From the NCBI GenBank assembly GCA_022646745.1, contig CP060262.1:180001-212000 (forward strand): a stretch of 32,000 nt of DNA. Reading direction: 5' to 3'. This DNA comes from Planctomycetales bacterium (GTDB lineage Bacteria > 4484-113 > JAFGCY01). Under the pieces are notes generated by a model, which was given only the letters and a program-made list of their open reading frames with translations, was not told where the DNA came from and searched no databases. The first letter of the stretch is position 1, and each line of letters begins with the position of its first letter. The translations under genes were made by a program, and so were the position numbers. Of this stretch, positions 5,825 to 13,670 are shown piece by piece.

Positions 5825-6532
5825 TTATTCGTCGCCCATACCGTCATCTTCATCGTCACCGCTGCCGCCGGCGACGCCACGGCTCGGCGGGGAACCACCC
5901 TTCTTGCCGCCCTTGCTGTCGCCGCCGCCGCCGCCCTGGGACTCTTCAACGGAGAGGCCTTCGCCCTCGGTGCGGCGGACCTGGAAGCTGATCGGCTGGC
6001 TGGTGCAGTAGAAACCGCTGAGCGCGATGATCTTCGGATAGGAGGACGGGATGGTCAGGTGCTTCTTGGTCTCACCGACAACCTCGCCGGCCTCATCAAA
6101 GGCCTTGATCTCCCAGATGCTGGGGGTCGGGACTTCCTCATCGCTCTGCACTTCGAGGCGGACCTCATACTTGGCTGCCCCTTCGTACTCGGGGATGCCG
6201 TTGTCCACGCTCTCGATGGTGATTTCCACCTTGGGCCCGGTGTAGTCGTCAACCGGCTCGCCGCAGGGGTTCTCTCCGCAGGGGTTCGCACCACAGGGAT
6301 TCCCACCGTCGGCACCCTTCAGCAGTGCGGCATTATCGCCGGCCGCCCCACGGGCCAGTCCGGCATCCGCCGCTGCGTCACCGCCCGCCGGAGTGCTCGG
6401 GGCACTCTTGGGCTTGTAGTCACGCAGCATCGCCTCGGCGGGATCCTCTCCCTGGTTGCAGCCCGCGGAGAACAGCAGCAGGCCAAGCAGTGCCGGGATG
6501 ACTAAGAGCAGGTTGTTGGTCTGATTTCTCAT
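5825..6532 (-). CDS. Secreted lipoprotein of unknown function with an internal NPCG repeat and a Gly/Asp-rich tail
   Basis: ATG with GGAGGA 7-8 nt upstream. Signal peptide plus relaxed lipobox LLLFSAG-C. Motif GNPCGANPCGENPCGE. C-terminus GGGGGDSKGGKKGG...GDDEDDGMGDE. Confidence 0.75.
   Translation of the reverse strand: MRNQTNNLLLVIPALLGLLLFSAGCNQGEDPAEAMLRDYKPKSAPSTPAGGDAAADAGLARGAAGDNAALLKGADGGNPCGANPCGENPCGEPVDDYTGPKVEITIESVDNGIPEYEGAAKYEVRLEVQSDEEVPTPSIWEIKAFDEAGEVVGETKKHLTIPSSYPKIIALSGFYCTSQPISFQVRRTEGEGLSVEESQGGGGGDSKGGKKGGSPPSRGVAGGSGDDEDDGMGDE
6257..6310 (-). repeat. Short 15-bp coding repeat (about 3 units) encoding NPCG[A/E]
   Basis: The plus strand reads ctcgccgca GGGGTTCTCTCCGCA GGGGTTCGCACCACA GGGATTCCCACCGTC. 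The first full unit is identical to units of the 16454-16663 array. Confidence 0.8.
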
Positions 6533-8356: not shown

Positions 8357-9991
8357 TTACTCTTCCGCCAGGAAGGGATAGCGGTAGTCAGTCGGCGGCA
8401 CGAAGGCCTCCTTGATGGTGCGCGGGCTGACCCAGCGCAGCAGGTTCAGTGCGCTGCCGGCCTTGTCGTTCGTGCCGCTGGCACGCGCGCCGCCGAAGGG
8501 CTGCTGGCCGACCACCGCACCGGTGGGCTTGTCGTTGATGTAGAAGTTGCCGGCGCAGTCAGCCAGCGCCGCAGCCGCGTGGTTGATCACGCGGCGGTCG
8601 CGGGCGAAGATGCTGCCGGTCAGGGCGTAGGGGGAGGTCTCGTTGCAGATGCCGAGCATCTTCTCGTAGTCCTTCTCCTTATATACATGGATCGTGAGCA
8701 CGGGGCCGAAGATCTCCTCCACCATCGTGCGGTAGTCCGGCTTCTTCGCGAGGATCACGGTCGGGTCGATGAAGAAGCCGACCTTGTCGGAGAACTCGCC
8801 ACCGAACTCAATCGTGGCATCCTTGCTGCGCTTGGCGGCCTTGATGTAGCCCGTGATCTTGTCATAGGCGCGGCGGTCGATCACCGCGTTGACGAAGTTG
8901 CGGAAGTCACGCGGGTCGCCGACCTTGATCTCTGAAAGCATCTTCGCCATGTGCTGACGCACCTTGGGCCACATCCCGGCGGGGACATAGGCACGGCTGG
9001 CGGCGGAGCACTTCTGGCCCTGGTACTCGAAGGCACCGCGCACGAGTGCGACGGCGACTGCCAGCGGGTCAGCGCTTTCATGCACGAACACGAAGTCCTT
9101 GCCGCCGGTCTCGCCGACCACGCGCGGGTAGTTGCGGTACTTCGGCAGGTTGTCGGCGACCACGCGCTGGATGTACTGGAAGGTGGCGGTGGAGCCGGTG
9201 AAGTGCACTCCGGCGAGGTCCGGGTGGTGCAGCACGGCGTTGCCGATGGTCGGGCCGTCGCCGGGCAGCATGTTGACAACACCCTCCGGCAGGCCGGCCT
9301 CGTGCAGGATCTCCATGATCAGCGCGGCGCTGTGCATCGCGGTCTCGCTCGGTTTCCAGACGGCGACGTTGCCCATCAGGGCGGGGGCCGTCGGCAGGTT
9401 GGCCTGGATGCTCGTGAAGTTGAACGGCGTGATCGCGAAGATGAAGCCGTCCAGCGGGCGGTGCTCCAGCTGGTTCCAGATGCCACTCGGGCTGATTGGC
9501 GGCTGGTCGGCGTAGATCTGCTCGGCGTACCAGCAGTTGAAGCGCCAGAAGTCCGCCAGCTCGCAGACGGCATCGATCTCGGACTGGAAGATGTTCTTGC
9601 CCTGCCCGAGCATGGTGGAGGCGTTCATCTTCGCGCGGTATGGTCCGGCCAGCAGGTCGGCGGCCTTCAGGAAGACGGCTGCGCGGTCCTGCCAGGGCAG
9701 CGCGGCCCAGGCCGGGCGGGCCTTCAGCGCGGCGTCAATCGCGCGCTGGGCCTCCTTCGCACCGGCCATGTGGAACTTCGCAATCACGGTGGAATGCTCA
9801 TGCGGCATCACCACCTCGCCTGTCCTGCCGGTGCGCACATTGCGTCCGTTGATGATGCAGGGGATGTCAATCGCCTTCGCACTCTGCTTCTTCAGCTCAG
9901 CCTTGACCGCGGCCTTCTCGGCGCTGCCGGGGGCATAGCCCAGCACCGGCTCGTTGCCGGGTACGGGAATCTTCGGGATATAGTTGCTCAT
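8357..9991 (-). CDS. pruA: L-glutamate gamma-semialdehyde (1-pyrroline-5-carboxylate) dehydrogenase
   Basis: The ORF track gives 630 aa from 10249. The family-typical N-terminus MSNYIPKIPVPGNEPVLGYAPGS starts at ATG 9991 (544 aa, GAGG upstream). The longer version would overlap the divergent gene at 10143. Motifs: ETGGKDF, EYQGQKCSA, RWVSPRTIKE. Confidence 0.85.
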   Translation of the reverse strand: MSNYIPKIPVPGNEPVLGYAPGSAEKAAVKAELKKQSAKAIDIPCIINGRNVRTGRTGEVVMPHEHSTVIAKFHMAGAKEAQRAIDAALKARPAWAALPWQDRAAVFLKAADLLAGPYRAKMNASTMLGQGKNIFQSEIDAVCELADFWRFNCWYAEQIYADQPPISPSGIWNQLEHRPLDGFIFAITPFNFTSIQANLPTAPALMGNVAVWKPSETAMHSAALIMEILHEAGLPEGVVNMLPGDGPTIGNAVLHHPDLAGVHFTGSTATFQYIQRVVADNLPKYRNYPRVVGETGGKDFVFVHESADPLAVAVALVRGAFEYQGQKCSAASRAYVPAGMWPKVRQHMAKMLSEIKVGDPRDFRNFVNAVIDRRAYDKITGYIKAAKRSKDATIEFGGEFSDKVGFFIDPTVILAKKPDYRTMVEEIFGPVLTIHVYKEKDYEKMLGICNETSPYALTGSIFARDRRVINHAAAALADCAGNFYINDKPTGAVVGQQPFGGARASGTNDKAGSALNLLRWVSPRTIKEAFVPPTDYRYPFLAEE

Positions 9992-10142
9992 CACACAAGC
10001 CTCGTTTCTTTGGATGGCCCCGCGGGGCAGCACCAATGATAACAGTCGGGGCATGGCGGATTGAACAAAGTGCAGGCCGGACACGACTGAGCTGCCAAGC
10101 CCGGACCGCTGGAACCAGCCTCCGGCCCGGCAAGGAGTTGAA

Positions 10143-10958
10143 ATGAAGAGAAACGCGATCATGATTGCGGTTTCCGTGCTTTGTGCAGTGCTGCTGGCCA
10201 GTGGCTGCGACAAGGCTTCCAAGGCAGGCGAAAGCGCTGACAGCAACACCCCGCAGACGATCCCGGCCAGCGAGCAACACGGCAGTGCTGCCAGCAGCGA
10301 AGGACATGAGCATGCGGATGCTGACGGGCATCACATGGATATGCATGGCGACATGGACCATGGCACGGACGTGACCAAGAGCACCTCACCTGCGGTCGGC
10401 AGCCCCTACGCGCTGGCAAGCTGTCCGGTGTCCGGGGAGGAACTCGGGTCAATGGGCGATCCGATCCACTACAACTACCAGGGCCGTGACATTGAGTTCT
10501 GCTGCCAGAGCTGCGTGCCGAAGTTCGAGGCCGACCCGGCGAAGTACATCGCCGAGATCGACGCGAGGATGATCGAGCAGCAGATGGCGGACTACCCGCT
10601 GGACAGCTGCCCCGTCACCGGCGACAAGCTTGGTGCCGAGGGCGAGACGGTGGACATCATCTTTGACAACCGGCTGGTGCGCTTCTGCTGCGCCGACTGC
10701 GTGAAGGACTTCAAGGCCGACCCGGCAAAGTACCTGTCGAAGATCGATGAGGCTCTGATTGCCAGCCAGTCCGCCAGCTACCCGCTGGACAAGTGCGTGG
10801 TGACGGGAGACGCACTCGGCGAGGATGGCGACAGGATCAACTATGTCGTCGGTTCCACGCTGATCGAGCTGTGCTGCGAGGACTGCAAGCACGACGTTGC
10901 CGCCAACCCGGCCAAGTACCTTGAGATGGTGCACAAGGCCCGCGGCGACCAGGCCTAG
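10143..10958 (+). CDS. Lipoprotein with a His/Met/Asp-rich stretch and three tandem YHS/TRASH-like modules (putative periplasmic copper-binding protein)
   Basis: AAGGAG lies 7 nt upstream of the ATG. Lipobox LLASG-C. GHEHADADGHHMDMHGDMDHG at aa 53-74. Three ~60-aa repeats follow the pattern YPLxxCPVxGxxLGxxG...FCCxxCxxxFxADPAKY (Cys at 94/120/121/124, 156/182/183/186, 218/244/245/248). Confidence 0.7.
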   Translation: MKRNAIMIAVSVLCAVLLASGCDKASKAGESADSNTPQTIPASEQHGSAASSEGHEHADADGHHMDMHGDMDHGTDVTKSTSPAVGSPYALASCPVSGEELGSMGDPIHYNYQGRDIEFCCQSCVPKFEADPAKYIAEIDARMIEQQMADYPLDSCPVTGDKLGAEGETVDIIFDNRLVRFCCADCVKDFKADPAKYLSKIDEALIASQSASYPLDKCVVTGDALGEDGDRINYVVGSTLIELCCEDCKHDVAANPAKYLEMVHKARGDQA

Positions 10959-10990: not shown

Positions 10991-11016
10991 GACGCGGGTC
11001 CCACGGGGCCCGCGTC
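10991..11016. terminator. GC-rich hairpin between the convergent lipoprotein gene and copA
   Basis: GACGCGGG-tcccacgggg-CCCGCGTC, followed by ctgcgTTTcc. The U-tract is weak. Confidence 0.5.
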
Positions 11017-11029
11017 CTGCGTTTCCGGC

Positions 11030-13558
11030 TCAGCGCTCCGACCTGGCTGAGCGCAGGCGCAGGGCATTGCCGATCACGCTCACGGATGACAGGGCCATGG
11101 CGGCACTGGCCACCATCGGGTTCAGCAGGTGCCCGGTCAGCGGCAGCAGCAGCCCGGCGGCCAGTGGCACTCCGAGCGAGTTGTAGATGAAGGCCAGGAA
11201 CAGGTTCTGGCGGATGTTGCCAACGATGTCACGGCTCAGCCTGCGTGCGCGGATGATGCCGTCGAGGTTGCCACGCACAAGCGTGATGCCACTGGACTGG
11301 ATGGCGATGTCCGTGCCGGTGCCCATTGCGATGCCGACCTCGGCCTGGGCCAGCGCGGCGGCATCGTTGATGCCGTCACCGGCCATCGCCACGGACAGTC
11401 CCTGCTGCTGCAGCTGCGTGACCTTGGCATGCTTGTCCTCCGGCATGACCTCAGCAAACACCTCGTCGATGCCCAGCTGCGATGCCACGGCCTGGGCGGT
11501 GGAGCTGTTGTCACCGGTGAGCAGCATGATGCGCAGGCCGTCGGCGCGCAGGGCGCGGATCGCTTCCGCAGCCCCCTCACGGACCGGGTCGGTGATGCCC
11601 AGCAGGCCCAGCAGGCGCCCGCCGCTGGCCACGTAGACAACCGTATGCGCTGATTGCTGCAGCCCATGGGCCACGTCGTCAAGCTCCGTGCCTTCGATGG
11701 ACTGTGATTCCATCAGGCGGCGGTTGCCAAGCGAGACCGGCTCGCCGCCCAGGCGGCCGCGCACTCCCTTGCCGGTGACGGACTCGAAGTCCTGCAGGCC
11801 GGATGAGTCAATATTGCGCTCCCGGCAATAATCCAGCACAGCCTGCGCCAGCGGATGTTCGCTGCCAGCCTCCAGGGCAGCTGCCACCCGCAGCAGCCTG
11901 GCTTCCTCAACACCATCGACCAGCTTTACGGCGCGCACGGCGGGCCGGCCCTCGGTCAGCGTGCCGGTCTTGTCAACCAGCAGCACGTCCACCGCAGCCA
12001 TCCGTTCCAGCGCTTCGGCGTCGCTGACCAGCACACCCTCACGGGCTCCGCGGCCCATGCCGACCATCACCGACATCGGCGTTGCCAGTCCGAGTGCGCA
12101 GGGGCAGGCGATGATCAGCACGGCGATCGCGCAGAATATCGCCAGGTCAATGCGCTGATAGTACAGCCACCAGACAAGGTATGAGAGCACGGCGACGGCC
12201 ATCACGGCAGGTACGAACCAGGCACTGACCCGGTCGGCGAGGTTCTGCAGCGGTGCGCGGCTGCGCTGGGCCTGCTGCACCATAGAGACGATGCGCGCGA
12301 GCATCGTGTCAGAGCCGACCCTGGTGGCTTCAATCACCAGGCCGCCGCGGCCATTGACTGTCCCGGCGCTGACCAGCTCACCGGGCTGCTTCTGCACAGC
12401 CAGCGGCTCACCGCTGAGCATTGATTCATCAACGCTGCTGCTGCCCTCGCGCACCTCGCCATCAACCGGCACCTTCTCGCCGGGCCGTACCCGCAGCCTG
12501 TCACCGACCTGTACCTCCTCCAGCGGCACTTCCTGCTCACCGCCCTCAGTGATGCGCAGCGCCGAGGGAGGAGCGAGGTCCAGCAGCGCGCGGATGGCGG
12601 ACCCGGTGCTGGCCCGGGCACGGGCCTCCAGCACCTGGCCGAGCAGCACGAGTGCGCTGATCACGGCCGCGCTTTCGAAATAGACGGAGGGCAATCCGCC
12701 CATGAATGCATTGTCAGGCAGGGTCTGCGGGAACAGCAGGGCGTAGAGCGAGTAGAGCCAGGCGGTGCTGACACCGATCATGATCAGGCTCCACATGTTC
12801 AGGCTGCGGTTGGCGAATGAGGCCCAGCCGCGGCTGAAGAACATCGCGCCGCTCCAGAAGACAACGGGCGTGGTCAGGGCAAGCTGGATCCACAGGCCGC
12901 TCATGCCGAGCTTCATCGCCAGGCCGTGGTGCATGCTGACAACTATCAGGGGCACGCTCAGCACGGTGGCAACGATGAAGCGCAGCAGCAGAGCACGGTA
13001 GGCCTGCTGCTCATGCTGGTCGGACTCGGCGCTGGCCTCCATCGGCTCCAGGTCCATGCCACACTTGGGACATGAACCGGGTTTGTCGCGAATGATTTCC
13101 GGATGCATCGGGCAGGTCCACTTGCCCTTGTATGACGTGCTGGCAGGCTTGCCGGCAGCGGCCTGGGCATGCCCAGCATGGCCGGAGTGCCTGCCGTGGA
13201 TGTACGTGTACGGTTCAGCATCGAACTTCTGCTTGCAGCCTGCGCTGCAGAAGTGGTAGTCCTTCCCTTCAAAGTGGCTGTGGTGCTGAGTGGCCTGCGG
13301 ATCGACGTCCATCCCACATACCAGGTCCTTAACCCTGGCCGGCATCGCAGCAGGCTCAGCCCCGTGGCCTGAATGGCCTGCATGTCCGCCATGCATGTAT
13401 CTGTGTGGATCAGCATCGAACTTCCGCTTGCAGCCAGCGCTGCAGAAGTGATAGTCCTCACCATCCACGCTCGTATGGTGCTGCGACTTGTGTGGGTCGA
13501 CGTCCATCCCGCAGACAGGATCCTTCACGTTTGTGATGTCTGTCATCTCATCCTGCAT
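11030..13558 (-). CDS. copA: Copper-translocating P1B-type ATPase with two YHS/TRASH domains and an HMBD at the N-terminus
   Basis: Motifs [37 protein letters not shown], the YN in FIYNSLGVP and MALSSVSV together give a Cu(I)-type P1B-1 signature. The N-terminus has DPVCGMDV...[19 protein letters not shown] twice, plus [22 protein letters not shown]. The track start at 13585 is TTG. I prefer ATG 13558 (MQDEM...), and ATG 13546 is also possible. Confidence 0.9.
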
Positions 13559-13670
13559 TGTTATTGGTATCCATGTAAATGACAATTAGCCTGATTGGAA
13601 CTGCGGGCAGCCCAGCGGATGCCGGCCCCACAGTGGAATACTGCTGATACTCAAAGTAGAATGTATATGG

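Follow-up and report, generated by a model that had tools for sequence, protein, structure and literature searches.

Most of what is known about periplasmic copper trafficking concerns the CusF, CopC and PcoE-type proteins of proteobacteria, all dependent on Met and His residues. CusF itself has an OB-fold and coordinates its metal through a Met2His/Trp site. Cys-based periplasmic copper proteins are also known, namely CopG (with a CxCC motif), CueP and the storage protein Csp1. The TRASH domain presumably includes the archaeal copper proteins CopM, CopT and CopR. As summarized at the point where PMC5552934 cites Ettema et al. 2003, TRASH is a small Cys-based module with predicted roles in metal sensing, trafficking and resistance. 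A mycobacterial YHS domain is reported to be a probable Cu sensor, for which copper coordination by one Asp and three Cys has been proposed (PMC4626032), and CusF is the periplasmic Cu(I)/Ag(I) metallochaperone of the E. coli CusCFBA system (PMC6235853). Here we analyse a gene in a 32-kb stretch of DNA from a Planctomycetales bacterium (contig CP060262.1, positions 180,001 to 212,000; the whole stretch is called the window below). The gene encodes a predicted lipoprotein with three tandem modules related to the YHS and TRASH domains, and it belongs to a large family whose members are typically encoded beside copper exporters and may serve them as metal chaperones or buffers.

The lipoprotein gene and its modules

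The window open reading frame (ORF) starts with ATG and encodes 271 amino acids followed by a stop codon. Its parts are listed here, with coordinates in the window; SPase II stands for signal peptidase II.

10143..10958, + strand: complete lipoprotein ORF with three tandem CCxxC-type YHS/TRASH modules
10143..10208, + strand: SPase II signal peptide and lipobox, amino acids 1-22, LLASG before Cys22, Asp at +2, by sequence reading
10302..10364, + strand: His/Met/Asp-rich stretch GHEHADADGHHMDMHGDMDHG, amino acids 54-74, within a predicted disordered low-complexity tether of amino acids 23-85
10422..10547, + strand: module 1 core, amino acids 94-135, CPVSG...FCCQSC...PAKY; the sole module with the conserved loop Met (LGSMG)
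10608..10733, + strand: module 2 core, amino acids 156-197, CPVTG...FCCADC...PAKY
10794..10919, + strand: module 3 core, amino acids 218-259, CVVTG...LCCEDC...PAKY

The N-terminus reads as a lipoprotein-type signal, MKRNAIMIAVSVLCAVLLASG followed by CDK after the cleavage point, with the lipobox LASGC and Asp at +2. The charged n-region, the hydrophobic h-region and a lipobox of the form [LVI][ASTVI][GAS]C, which together mark SPase II substrates, are all present, and from the signal peptide and lipobox we judge the protein to be exported. The three repeats recur with a period of exactly 62 amino acids (Cys94, Cys156 and Cys218), and each is preceded by a Y-P/A-L linker. Their pairwise identity is 36-48%, and the weakest pair, R1 and R3, is matched by BLASTP with E = 1e-12. 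The pattern C-x25-CC-x2-C is found in every repeat (C94/120/121/124, C156/182/183/186 and C218/244/245/248). All 12 Cys are invariant in an alignment of 31 sequences, in which the His/Met/Asp composition of the tether is also conserved among close relatives. A first-pass annotation of this DNA had described a lipoprotein with a His/Met/Asp stretch and three repeats of about 60 amino acids sharing this Cys pattern, and the lipobox, the stretch at amino acids 54-74, the 62-residue period and the Cys of all three repeats agree with that description.

The lipobox and the CDK motif are kept solely in the three closest relatives of the window protein (P0002, P0006 and P0016). The lipid anchor, the Asp at +2 and the N-terminal His/Met/Asp tether are special to this small clade. 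In E. coli, Asp at +2 of a lipoprotein leads to retention in the inner membrane. The tether resembles periplasmic copper-binding Met/His motifs. These clade features would be consistent with a protein anchored on the periplasmic side of the inner membrane, near the copper exit of the CopA-type ATPase encoded next to it.

Relation to YHS and TRASH domains

The whole window protein matches the Pfam YHS model (PF04945) with 42.5 bits against a cut-off of 30.3 (E = 6.5e-11), and it passes the TRASH_HVO_1752_C model with 38.3 bits against a cut-off of 27. Taken singly against the same YHS cut-off, R1 scores 30.6 bits, just above it, R2 falls below it with 18.8 and R3 gives no match; the three are mutually homologous nonetheless. 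The protein stays below the cut-off of Arc_trans_TRASH (24.4 bits against 27), and NCBIfam holds no fitting model for it (best match 16 bits against a cut-off of 45). When 432 family modules were aligned with CopA-type YHS domains by hhalign, the match reached a probability of 97.8% (E = 1.2e-12) and paired PVSGE with PVCGM and FCCQSC with FCSAGC. These comparisons indicate that the modules are true YHS/TRASH relatives. The first-pass annotation had aligned the repeats with the YHS domains of the neighbouring CopA, with the first Cys three residues earlier and FCS changed to FCC; the pairing reproduces both differences, and the scores of the whole protein are well away from random level.

The displaced Cys is better described as a ligand swap in a CxxC-type knuckle. 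Compared with YHS, Asp at knuckle position 1 is replaced by Cys, Cys at position 4 by Ser, Gly, Thr or Ala, and the Ser after Cys2 by Cys. Four thiolates would replace one Asp and three Cys. The Cys of the canonical DPVCG is absent from the window modules, in which Cys stands at position 1 (CPVSG) and not at position 4, and a Cys at the canonical position occurs in 2 of 466 family modules. The family consensus is V-R-F-C-C where YHS domains read Y-H-F-C-S, and the name-giving Y, H and S are not conserved. Common to the family and the YHS domains of CopA-type P1B ATPases are a homologous fold and sequence, with the shared elements PV-x-G ... F-C-x-x-x-C ... F-x-x-DP-x-x-Y and the C-x3-C kept. 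The two differ in location and layout: family modules are exported in three to five tandem copies, whereas those of CopA are cytoplasmic, with one or two appended to an enzyme.

The window modules depart from the TRASH spacing of C-x19-22-C-x3-C. Cys1 and Cys2 are 25 residues apart in them, which falls outside that range because Cys1 occupies another knuckle position; across the family this spacing is 22-29. The C-x3-C element is retained, and the spacing becomes 22 if counted from the canonical position. The family further differs from TRASH in its extra Cys and in being bacterial, secreted and tandem.

Family size and conservation of the modules

A word-indexed search retrieved 1574 clusters (90% identity, E <= 1e-3), nearly all derived from metagenome-assembled genomes (MAGs) and named "hypothetical protein" or "YHS domain-containing protein". 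An exhaustive profile search over 50%-identity clusters returned 637 at E <= 1e-30, 2547 at E <= 1e-10 and 7225 at E <= 1e-3. From 120 homologues we obtained the 466 modules, carried by proteins with three (n = 56), four (n = 22) or five (n = 42) repeats. About 92% of these modules have the pattern C-x22-29-CC-x2-C, and the loop Met (LGSMG) is conserved in 72% of family modules. Almost all family members carry a signal peptide, mostly of the ordinary type and not with a lipobox, and about 20% of the 120 have a His-rich tail at the N- or C-terminus. Displacement of the first Cys, doubling of the second and a secreted tandem layout are family-wide, spread over hundreds of clusters and not peculiar to the window gene.

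Departures from the pattern are also found. In five-repeat proteins (P0003, P0005, P0011 and about 20 others) the third module reads LANAEA for FCCxxC and has lost three of the four Cys; it retains Cys1 and the hydrophobic core and fold-determining residues, which suggests a non-metal-binding spacer or a protein-interaction module. Since the Cys are lost and the fold residues kept in this module, the Cys of the family look functional and are probably dispensable for folding. Repeat 1 of P0115 has the form CxxC...CSxxC, in which the ligand count stays four, and this form is taken to be ancestral. Either departure would suit a functional site of four ligands that folding does not require.

Predicted structure

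AlphaFold2, run with the 31-sequence alignment, gives a model of the protein with a mean predicted local distance difference test score (pLDDT) of 81.6 and a predicted template modelling score (pTM) of 0.68, in which each module is a beta-hairpin followed by two helices. The modules and linking helices exceed pLDDT 90, and residues 1-85 are predicted to be disordered. Foldseek with this model gave no match at E <= 0.001; the weak matches at E of 0.2-1 are the phenol hydroxylase C-terminal domain and eL24/Rlp24. Searching the PDB by sequence with the whole window protein returned nothing relevant, a search with the module profile was marginal (nearest, the phenol hydroxylase alpha-subunit C-terminal domain, E = 0.05), and no solved structure of any family member was found in these sequence and profile searches. 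The weak structural or sequence relatives, with matches that are not statistically significant, are eL24/Rlp24, the phenol/toluene hydroxylase C-terminal domain and the MYM zinc finger. A treble-clef-like hairpin-plus-helix module is common to the family, to eL24/Rlp24 and to the hydroxylase alpha C-terminal domain; the latter two are cytoplasmic and single copies, whereas the family is exported and tandem.

We take the sites in eL24/Rlp24, the phenol hydroxylase C-terminal domain and the MYM zinc finger to be structural zinc sites, and these nearest relatives speak for an explanation in which Zn(Cys)4 treble-clef modules form a rigid three-bead rod, an adaptor or plug for efflux machinery, with transient metal binding by the His/Met/Asp tails and not by the Cys. 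The four invariant Cys suit tetrahedral coordination, and the high pLDDT of modules and linking helices together with the pTM suggests a defined rod. Yet many five-repeat members stably keep a module from which three of the four Cys are gone, and the family protein of Phycisphaera mikurensis has a Cys-less first module beside two intact ones; as such Cys-poor modules are retained, the fold seems not to need metal. Zn(Cys)4 fingers are also unusual among Sec-exported periplasmic proteins, and the association with Cu(I)/Ag(I) exporters described below points to a soft-metal role. We regard a purely structural zinc role as unlikely.

Genomic context of the family

One genome per species was scanned with an 18-sequence profile, and the 80 loci studied are the best-scoring of 254 matches. 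They span Planctomycetota, Hydrogenedentota, Sumerlaeota, Acidobacteriota, Nitrospirales and several unclassified MAGs. Clustering of the ORFs revealed three recurring neighbours on the same strand: an OEP/TolC outer-membrane factor (OMF), a CusB-like adaptor (680 amino acids, with two HMBDs and a DUF3347 domain) and a resistance-nodulation-division (RND) pump of the CusA/CzcA family (761 bits against a model cut-off of 701). Among the 66 loci with at least 5 kb of upstream sequence, a gene for a heavy-metal-efflux (HME) RND pump lies directly upstream on the same strand in 44, in many cases overlapping the family gene by 4 bp, and one or more pump components occur in 53. By tblastn, a same-strand RND pump is found in 40 of the 47 loci with near-complete flanks (85%), a P1B ATPase in 16 (34%), one or the other in 43 (91%) and both in 13; a P1B ATPase lies within 10 kb in 25 of all 80 loci. 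The family is tied genomically to copper exporters far more often than chance, and its main genomic partner is a CusCBA-type RND pump, usually operonic, and not CopA. The proposal in the first-pass annotation that the protein partners an exporter of the CopA kind is partly supported, by the loci with P1B ATPases, and has to be corrected as to the main partner, which is the RND pump.

The partner pumps are of the copper/silver type. In an alignment to E. coli CusA, each residue of the triad M573, M623 and M672 is kept in 48 of 51 pumps, E625 is kept in 50, D405 and E412 in all 51, and position 399 is Ala or Ser in 50. Partner ATPases have either a CPC motif, most with a YHS+HMBD N-terminus (9 of the 14 CPC-type ATPases adjoining family members have this layout), or a CPH motif with a His-rich N-terminus. 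Gene order differs in L026 and on the P. mikurensis plasmid described below. In an acidobacterial locus the family gene precedes the genes for OMF, membrane fusion protein and RND pump, and in two loci the family gene directly precedes CopA and the RND pump is absent. The exporter link persists across gene-order changes and in no fewer than three named phyla. A tblastn search of the loci with E. coli CusF gave no significant match, and no CusF domain was detected in the adaptor protein.

Metal-resistance islands bundle many determinants and thiolate sites are not copper-specific, so that the family genes might be hitch-hikers in such islands, acting on another soft metal (Zn, Cd, Hg or Au) or having no metal function. 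This explanation is at odds with the 4-bp overlaps with RND or TolC genes, which indicate translational coupling in a Cus-type operon, and with the copper signatures in the partners examined, and we consider it highly improbable.

Three further proteins recur near the family genes. A Cys-rich protein of about 141 amino acids with a hydrophobic N-terminus (L062:1983-2408 (+), in 29 of the 80 loci) has no Pfam or NCBIfam match; its gene lies about 8 kb upstream of the family gene on the same strand, ahead of the OMF-adaptor-RND run, and it is possibly a further metal-binding or regulatory component. Immediately downstream of the family gene, a membrane protein of about 305 amino acids (L031:10937-11854 (+) and 20 other loci) carries one CCxxC YHS-like module together with a signal peptide, a His-rich linker and a DUF2231 transmembrane domain, so the module also occurs as part of a membrane protein. 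In 8 loci (L045:12355-13275 (+) among them), the sequence downstream of the family gene encodes a Metal_resist/LTXXQ (CpxP/Spy-like) protein that has an insert rich in Met, His and Gly.

A thiol-disulfide or redox role was also considered, in which cycling of CC-x2-C guards envelope proteins from copper-catalysed mis-oxidation or interconverts Cu(II) and Cu(I), as proposed for CopG. The vicinal and CxxC-spaced Cys of an exported protein are consistent with such a role, as are the multicopper oxidase genes nearby in some loci and the stress-type Metal_resist/LTXXQ protein just mentioned. The fold, however, is that of TRASH/YHS and not thioredoxin-like, and Cys1, 25 residues off, is no less invariant than the cluster, a pattern better matched by a metal site with four ligands than by a redox pair. 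A redox role is, in our judgement, quite improbable.

As an independent, curated example, a family member annotated as "hypothetical protein" (WP_014438594.1) is carried by plasmid pPSMK1 (conjugative by PLSDB type) of the cultured P. mikurensis. Its gene overlaps the start of a TolC gene, the first in a run of genes for TolC, adaptor, RND pump, multicopper oxidase and CopB. The RND pump shares 49% identity with E. coli CusA and has an intact Met triad. Around this run, the pPSMK1 island encodes a second copper oxidase, a P-type ATPase, a metal-sensitive regulator and a copper-binding protein of the four-helix-bundle kind. The copper island of P. mikurensis includes a DUF2231 gene as well (L087:11051-11635).

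The neighbourhood of the window gene

The window gene SPECIFICALLY is a minority case within the family, with CopA as the sole metal gene nearby; CopA aside, there is no metal-related gene in the 32-kb window. The features around it are as follows.

11030..13585, - strand: CopA-type Cu(I) P1B-1 ATPase, N-terminus with two YHS and HMBD, CPC motif
10991..11016, no strand assigned: GC-rich hairpin with an 11-bp stem between the convergent genes (z = -2.75)
10027..10050, no strand assigned: invariant block of about 25 nucleotides, GGGCAG..CCAATGATAACAGTCGGG, in the stretch that separates the divergent genes for the aldehyde dehydrogenase and the lipoprotein

The lipoprotein gene and copA are convergent, and the gap between them, given as 70 bp in the first-pass annotation, measures 71 bp and holds the hairpin. 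The listed start of copA is a TTG at 13585, and an in-frame ATG at 13558 is more plausible. The hairpin is possibly a bidirectional terminator; a consensus terminator scan passed over it because it has no T-run. Consensus scans of the window region for promoters and terminators were uninformative. The upstream block is invariant in four genomes whose proteins are 56-62% identical, occurs once in the window, and may be a candidate promoter or operator of either flanking gene.

The flanking gene on the other side is the second aldehyde dehydrogenase gene (8357-10249, - strand), whose listed 630-residue ORF overlaps the start of the lipoprotein gene. Its Aldedh domain begins at residue 142 and its orthologues in related contigs have 544 amino acids; the probable start is the Met of MSNYIPKIP..., about 86 codons 3' of the listed GTG. 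With that start, the intergenic region between the two divergent genes measures about 150 bp. Other window genes encode two aldehyde dehydrogenases in all, an amino-acid permease-Usp fusion, a periplasmic binding protein, CheA and a PKD-domain protein. A further predicted lipoprotein of 235 amino acids without a family match (5825-6532, - strand) has NPCGANPCGENPCGEP repeats and a Gly/Asp-rich C-terminus.

The synteny of the closest relatives (L001-L005, 56-62% identity) was considered as evidence for a link with copA and rejected, as the whole region is collinear, with the permease and both aldehyde dehydrogenases. Aldehyde dehydrogenase, lipoprotein gene and copA stand in this order in each of the three closest relatives, along with the permease where the contigs reach. 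Since the arrangement is found solely in genomes that are collinear throughout, local synteny is uninformative on copA, and with the two genes convergent as well, the adjacency of the window's own lipoprotein gene to copA carries little weight. The first-pass annotation had expected synteny with copA among relatives; P1B synteny does occur in the loci of the wider family, and the window adjacency itself is mere collinearity.

With CopA as its sole partner in the window, the protein could also be imagined to serve cuproenzyme maturation rather than detoxification, by loading Cu(I) from CopA onto multicopper oxidases, oxidase subunits or similar periplasmic enzymes. In Rhodobacter, maturation of a periplasmic multicopper oxidase depends on CopA (PMC8456105), and the pPSMK1 operon includes a multicopper oxidase. 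On the other hand, the main context of the family is a tripartite efflux pump that expels metal, and the 32-kb window holds no cuproenzyme gene. Delivery to cuproenzymes is likewise quite improbable.

Proposed function of the protein and the family

Given the homology, the export signals, the four-Cys pattern and the genomic link to Cu(I) exporters observed above, we think it somewhat probable that the protein acts in the periplasm as a chaperone or buffer for Cu(I)/Ag(I), with all-thiolate sites, and serves copper exporters as an analogue of CusF. The protein would be a Sec-exported, lipid-anchored chain of three TRASH/YHS modules on a disordered His/Met/Asp-rich tether of about 60 residues, retained at the inner membrane if the +2 Asp rule of E. 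coli applies. Each module would bind a single soft metal ion (Cu(I), perhaps also Ag(I)) at an all-thiolate site formed by the knuckle Cys1 and the CC-x2-C cluster, joined in most family modules by the conserved loop Met. Cu(I) released into the periplasm would be buffered and handed to an exporter, as CusF does for E. coli CusCBA. The exporter would be, in most relatives, the CusCBA-type RND pump of the same operon; in the window organism, where CopA is the sole nearby partner, the protein may pick up Cu(I) where it leaves the ATPase on the periplasmic side. In this scheme we infer the metal binding, the identity of the metal, its stoichiometry, the direction of transfer and the membrane location.

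The comparison with CusF has two sides. Both are small, exported and, family-wide, encoded in CusCBA-type operons whose pump has the same Met-triad site. There is no sequence or fold similarity between them, and the CusF family is not among the Pfam matches of the window protein; the fold here is TRASH-like, and the predicted sites are all-thiolate and several per chain. The window copy, unlike CusF, lies outside any cus operon. CopG, CueP and Csp1 set a precedent for periplasmic thiolate binding of Cu(I) and for accessory genes in copper-resistance clusters; their folds are unrelated to the family, and no homology turned up in general searches, none of which was aimed at these three proteins.

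Several points weigh against a chaperone or buffer. The four Cys could equally mean Zn(Cys)4, given the zinc we ascribe to the structural relatives of the fold, and exported Cys may oxidise to disulfides in the periplasm. Modules 2 and 3 of the window protein are without the loop Met, which module 1 alone has. The window gene is monocistronic and convergent to copA, so that the two cannot be co-transcribed, and a search 5' of copA found no copy of the upstream block. No RND pump lies within the 32-kb window, and the CusCBA-operon setting is thus not that of the window gene; its synteny with three close relatives reflects overall collinearity. In the sample of 80 loci Phycisphaerales dominate, which means that the loci are not all independent, and the RND link is found in 2 of 8 Hydrogenedentota loci.

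On a broader scale, we put forward as a tentative possibility, less secure than the chaperone or buffer function itself, that tandem CCxxC-TRASH proteins are unrecognised, widespread periplasmic Cu(I)/Ag(I) all-thiolate chaperones that fill the place of CusF in the Cus systems that Planctomycetota, Hydrogenedentota and neighbouring phyla possess, relaying copper to the RND pump from ATPases of the CopA/CopB type by way of a rod with several sites.

Implications

The domain is already known, and annotation pipelines already label such proteins "YHS domain-containing". A search of open-access literature on YHS/TRASH together with periplasm, efflux, Cus, Planctomycetes or P. mikurensis copper found no description of the family, and in these texts we could not find described the combination of a secreted tandem layout, a rewired four-Cys ligand set and systematic membership in Cus-type operons. 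What we offer is a well-supported functional prediction for a large family and not a new principle.

The family provides an annotation marker for copper/silver efflux loci in metagenomes, and the plasmid-borne copy in P. mikurensis, a cultured organism, allows the hypothesis to be tested directly. If the prediction is true, hundreds of clusters now named "hypothetical" or "YHS domain-containing" would gain a function. If Cu(I) is bound via thiolates, the family would represent a non-homologous solution to periplasmic copper trafficking in several little-studied phyla. The TRASH/YHS fold would then have a role in periplasmic trafficking beyond that in cytoplasmic sensing, and one domain would handle copper on both sides of the membrane, as YHS on the cytoplasmic face of CopA and as CCxxC-TRASH in the periplasm.

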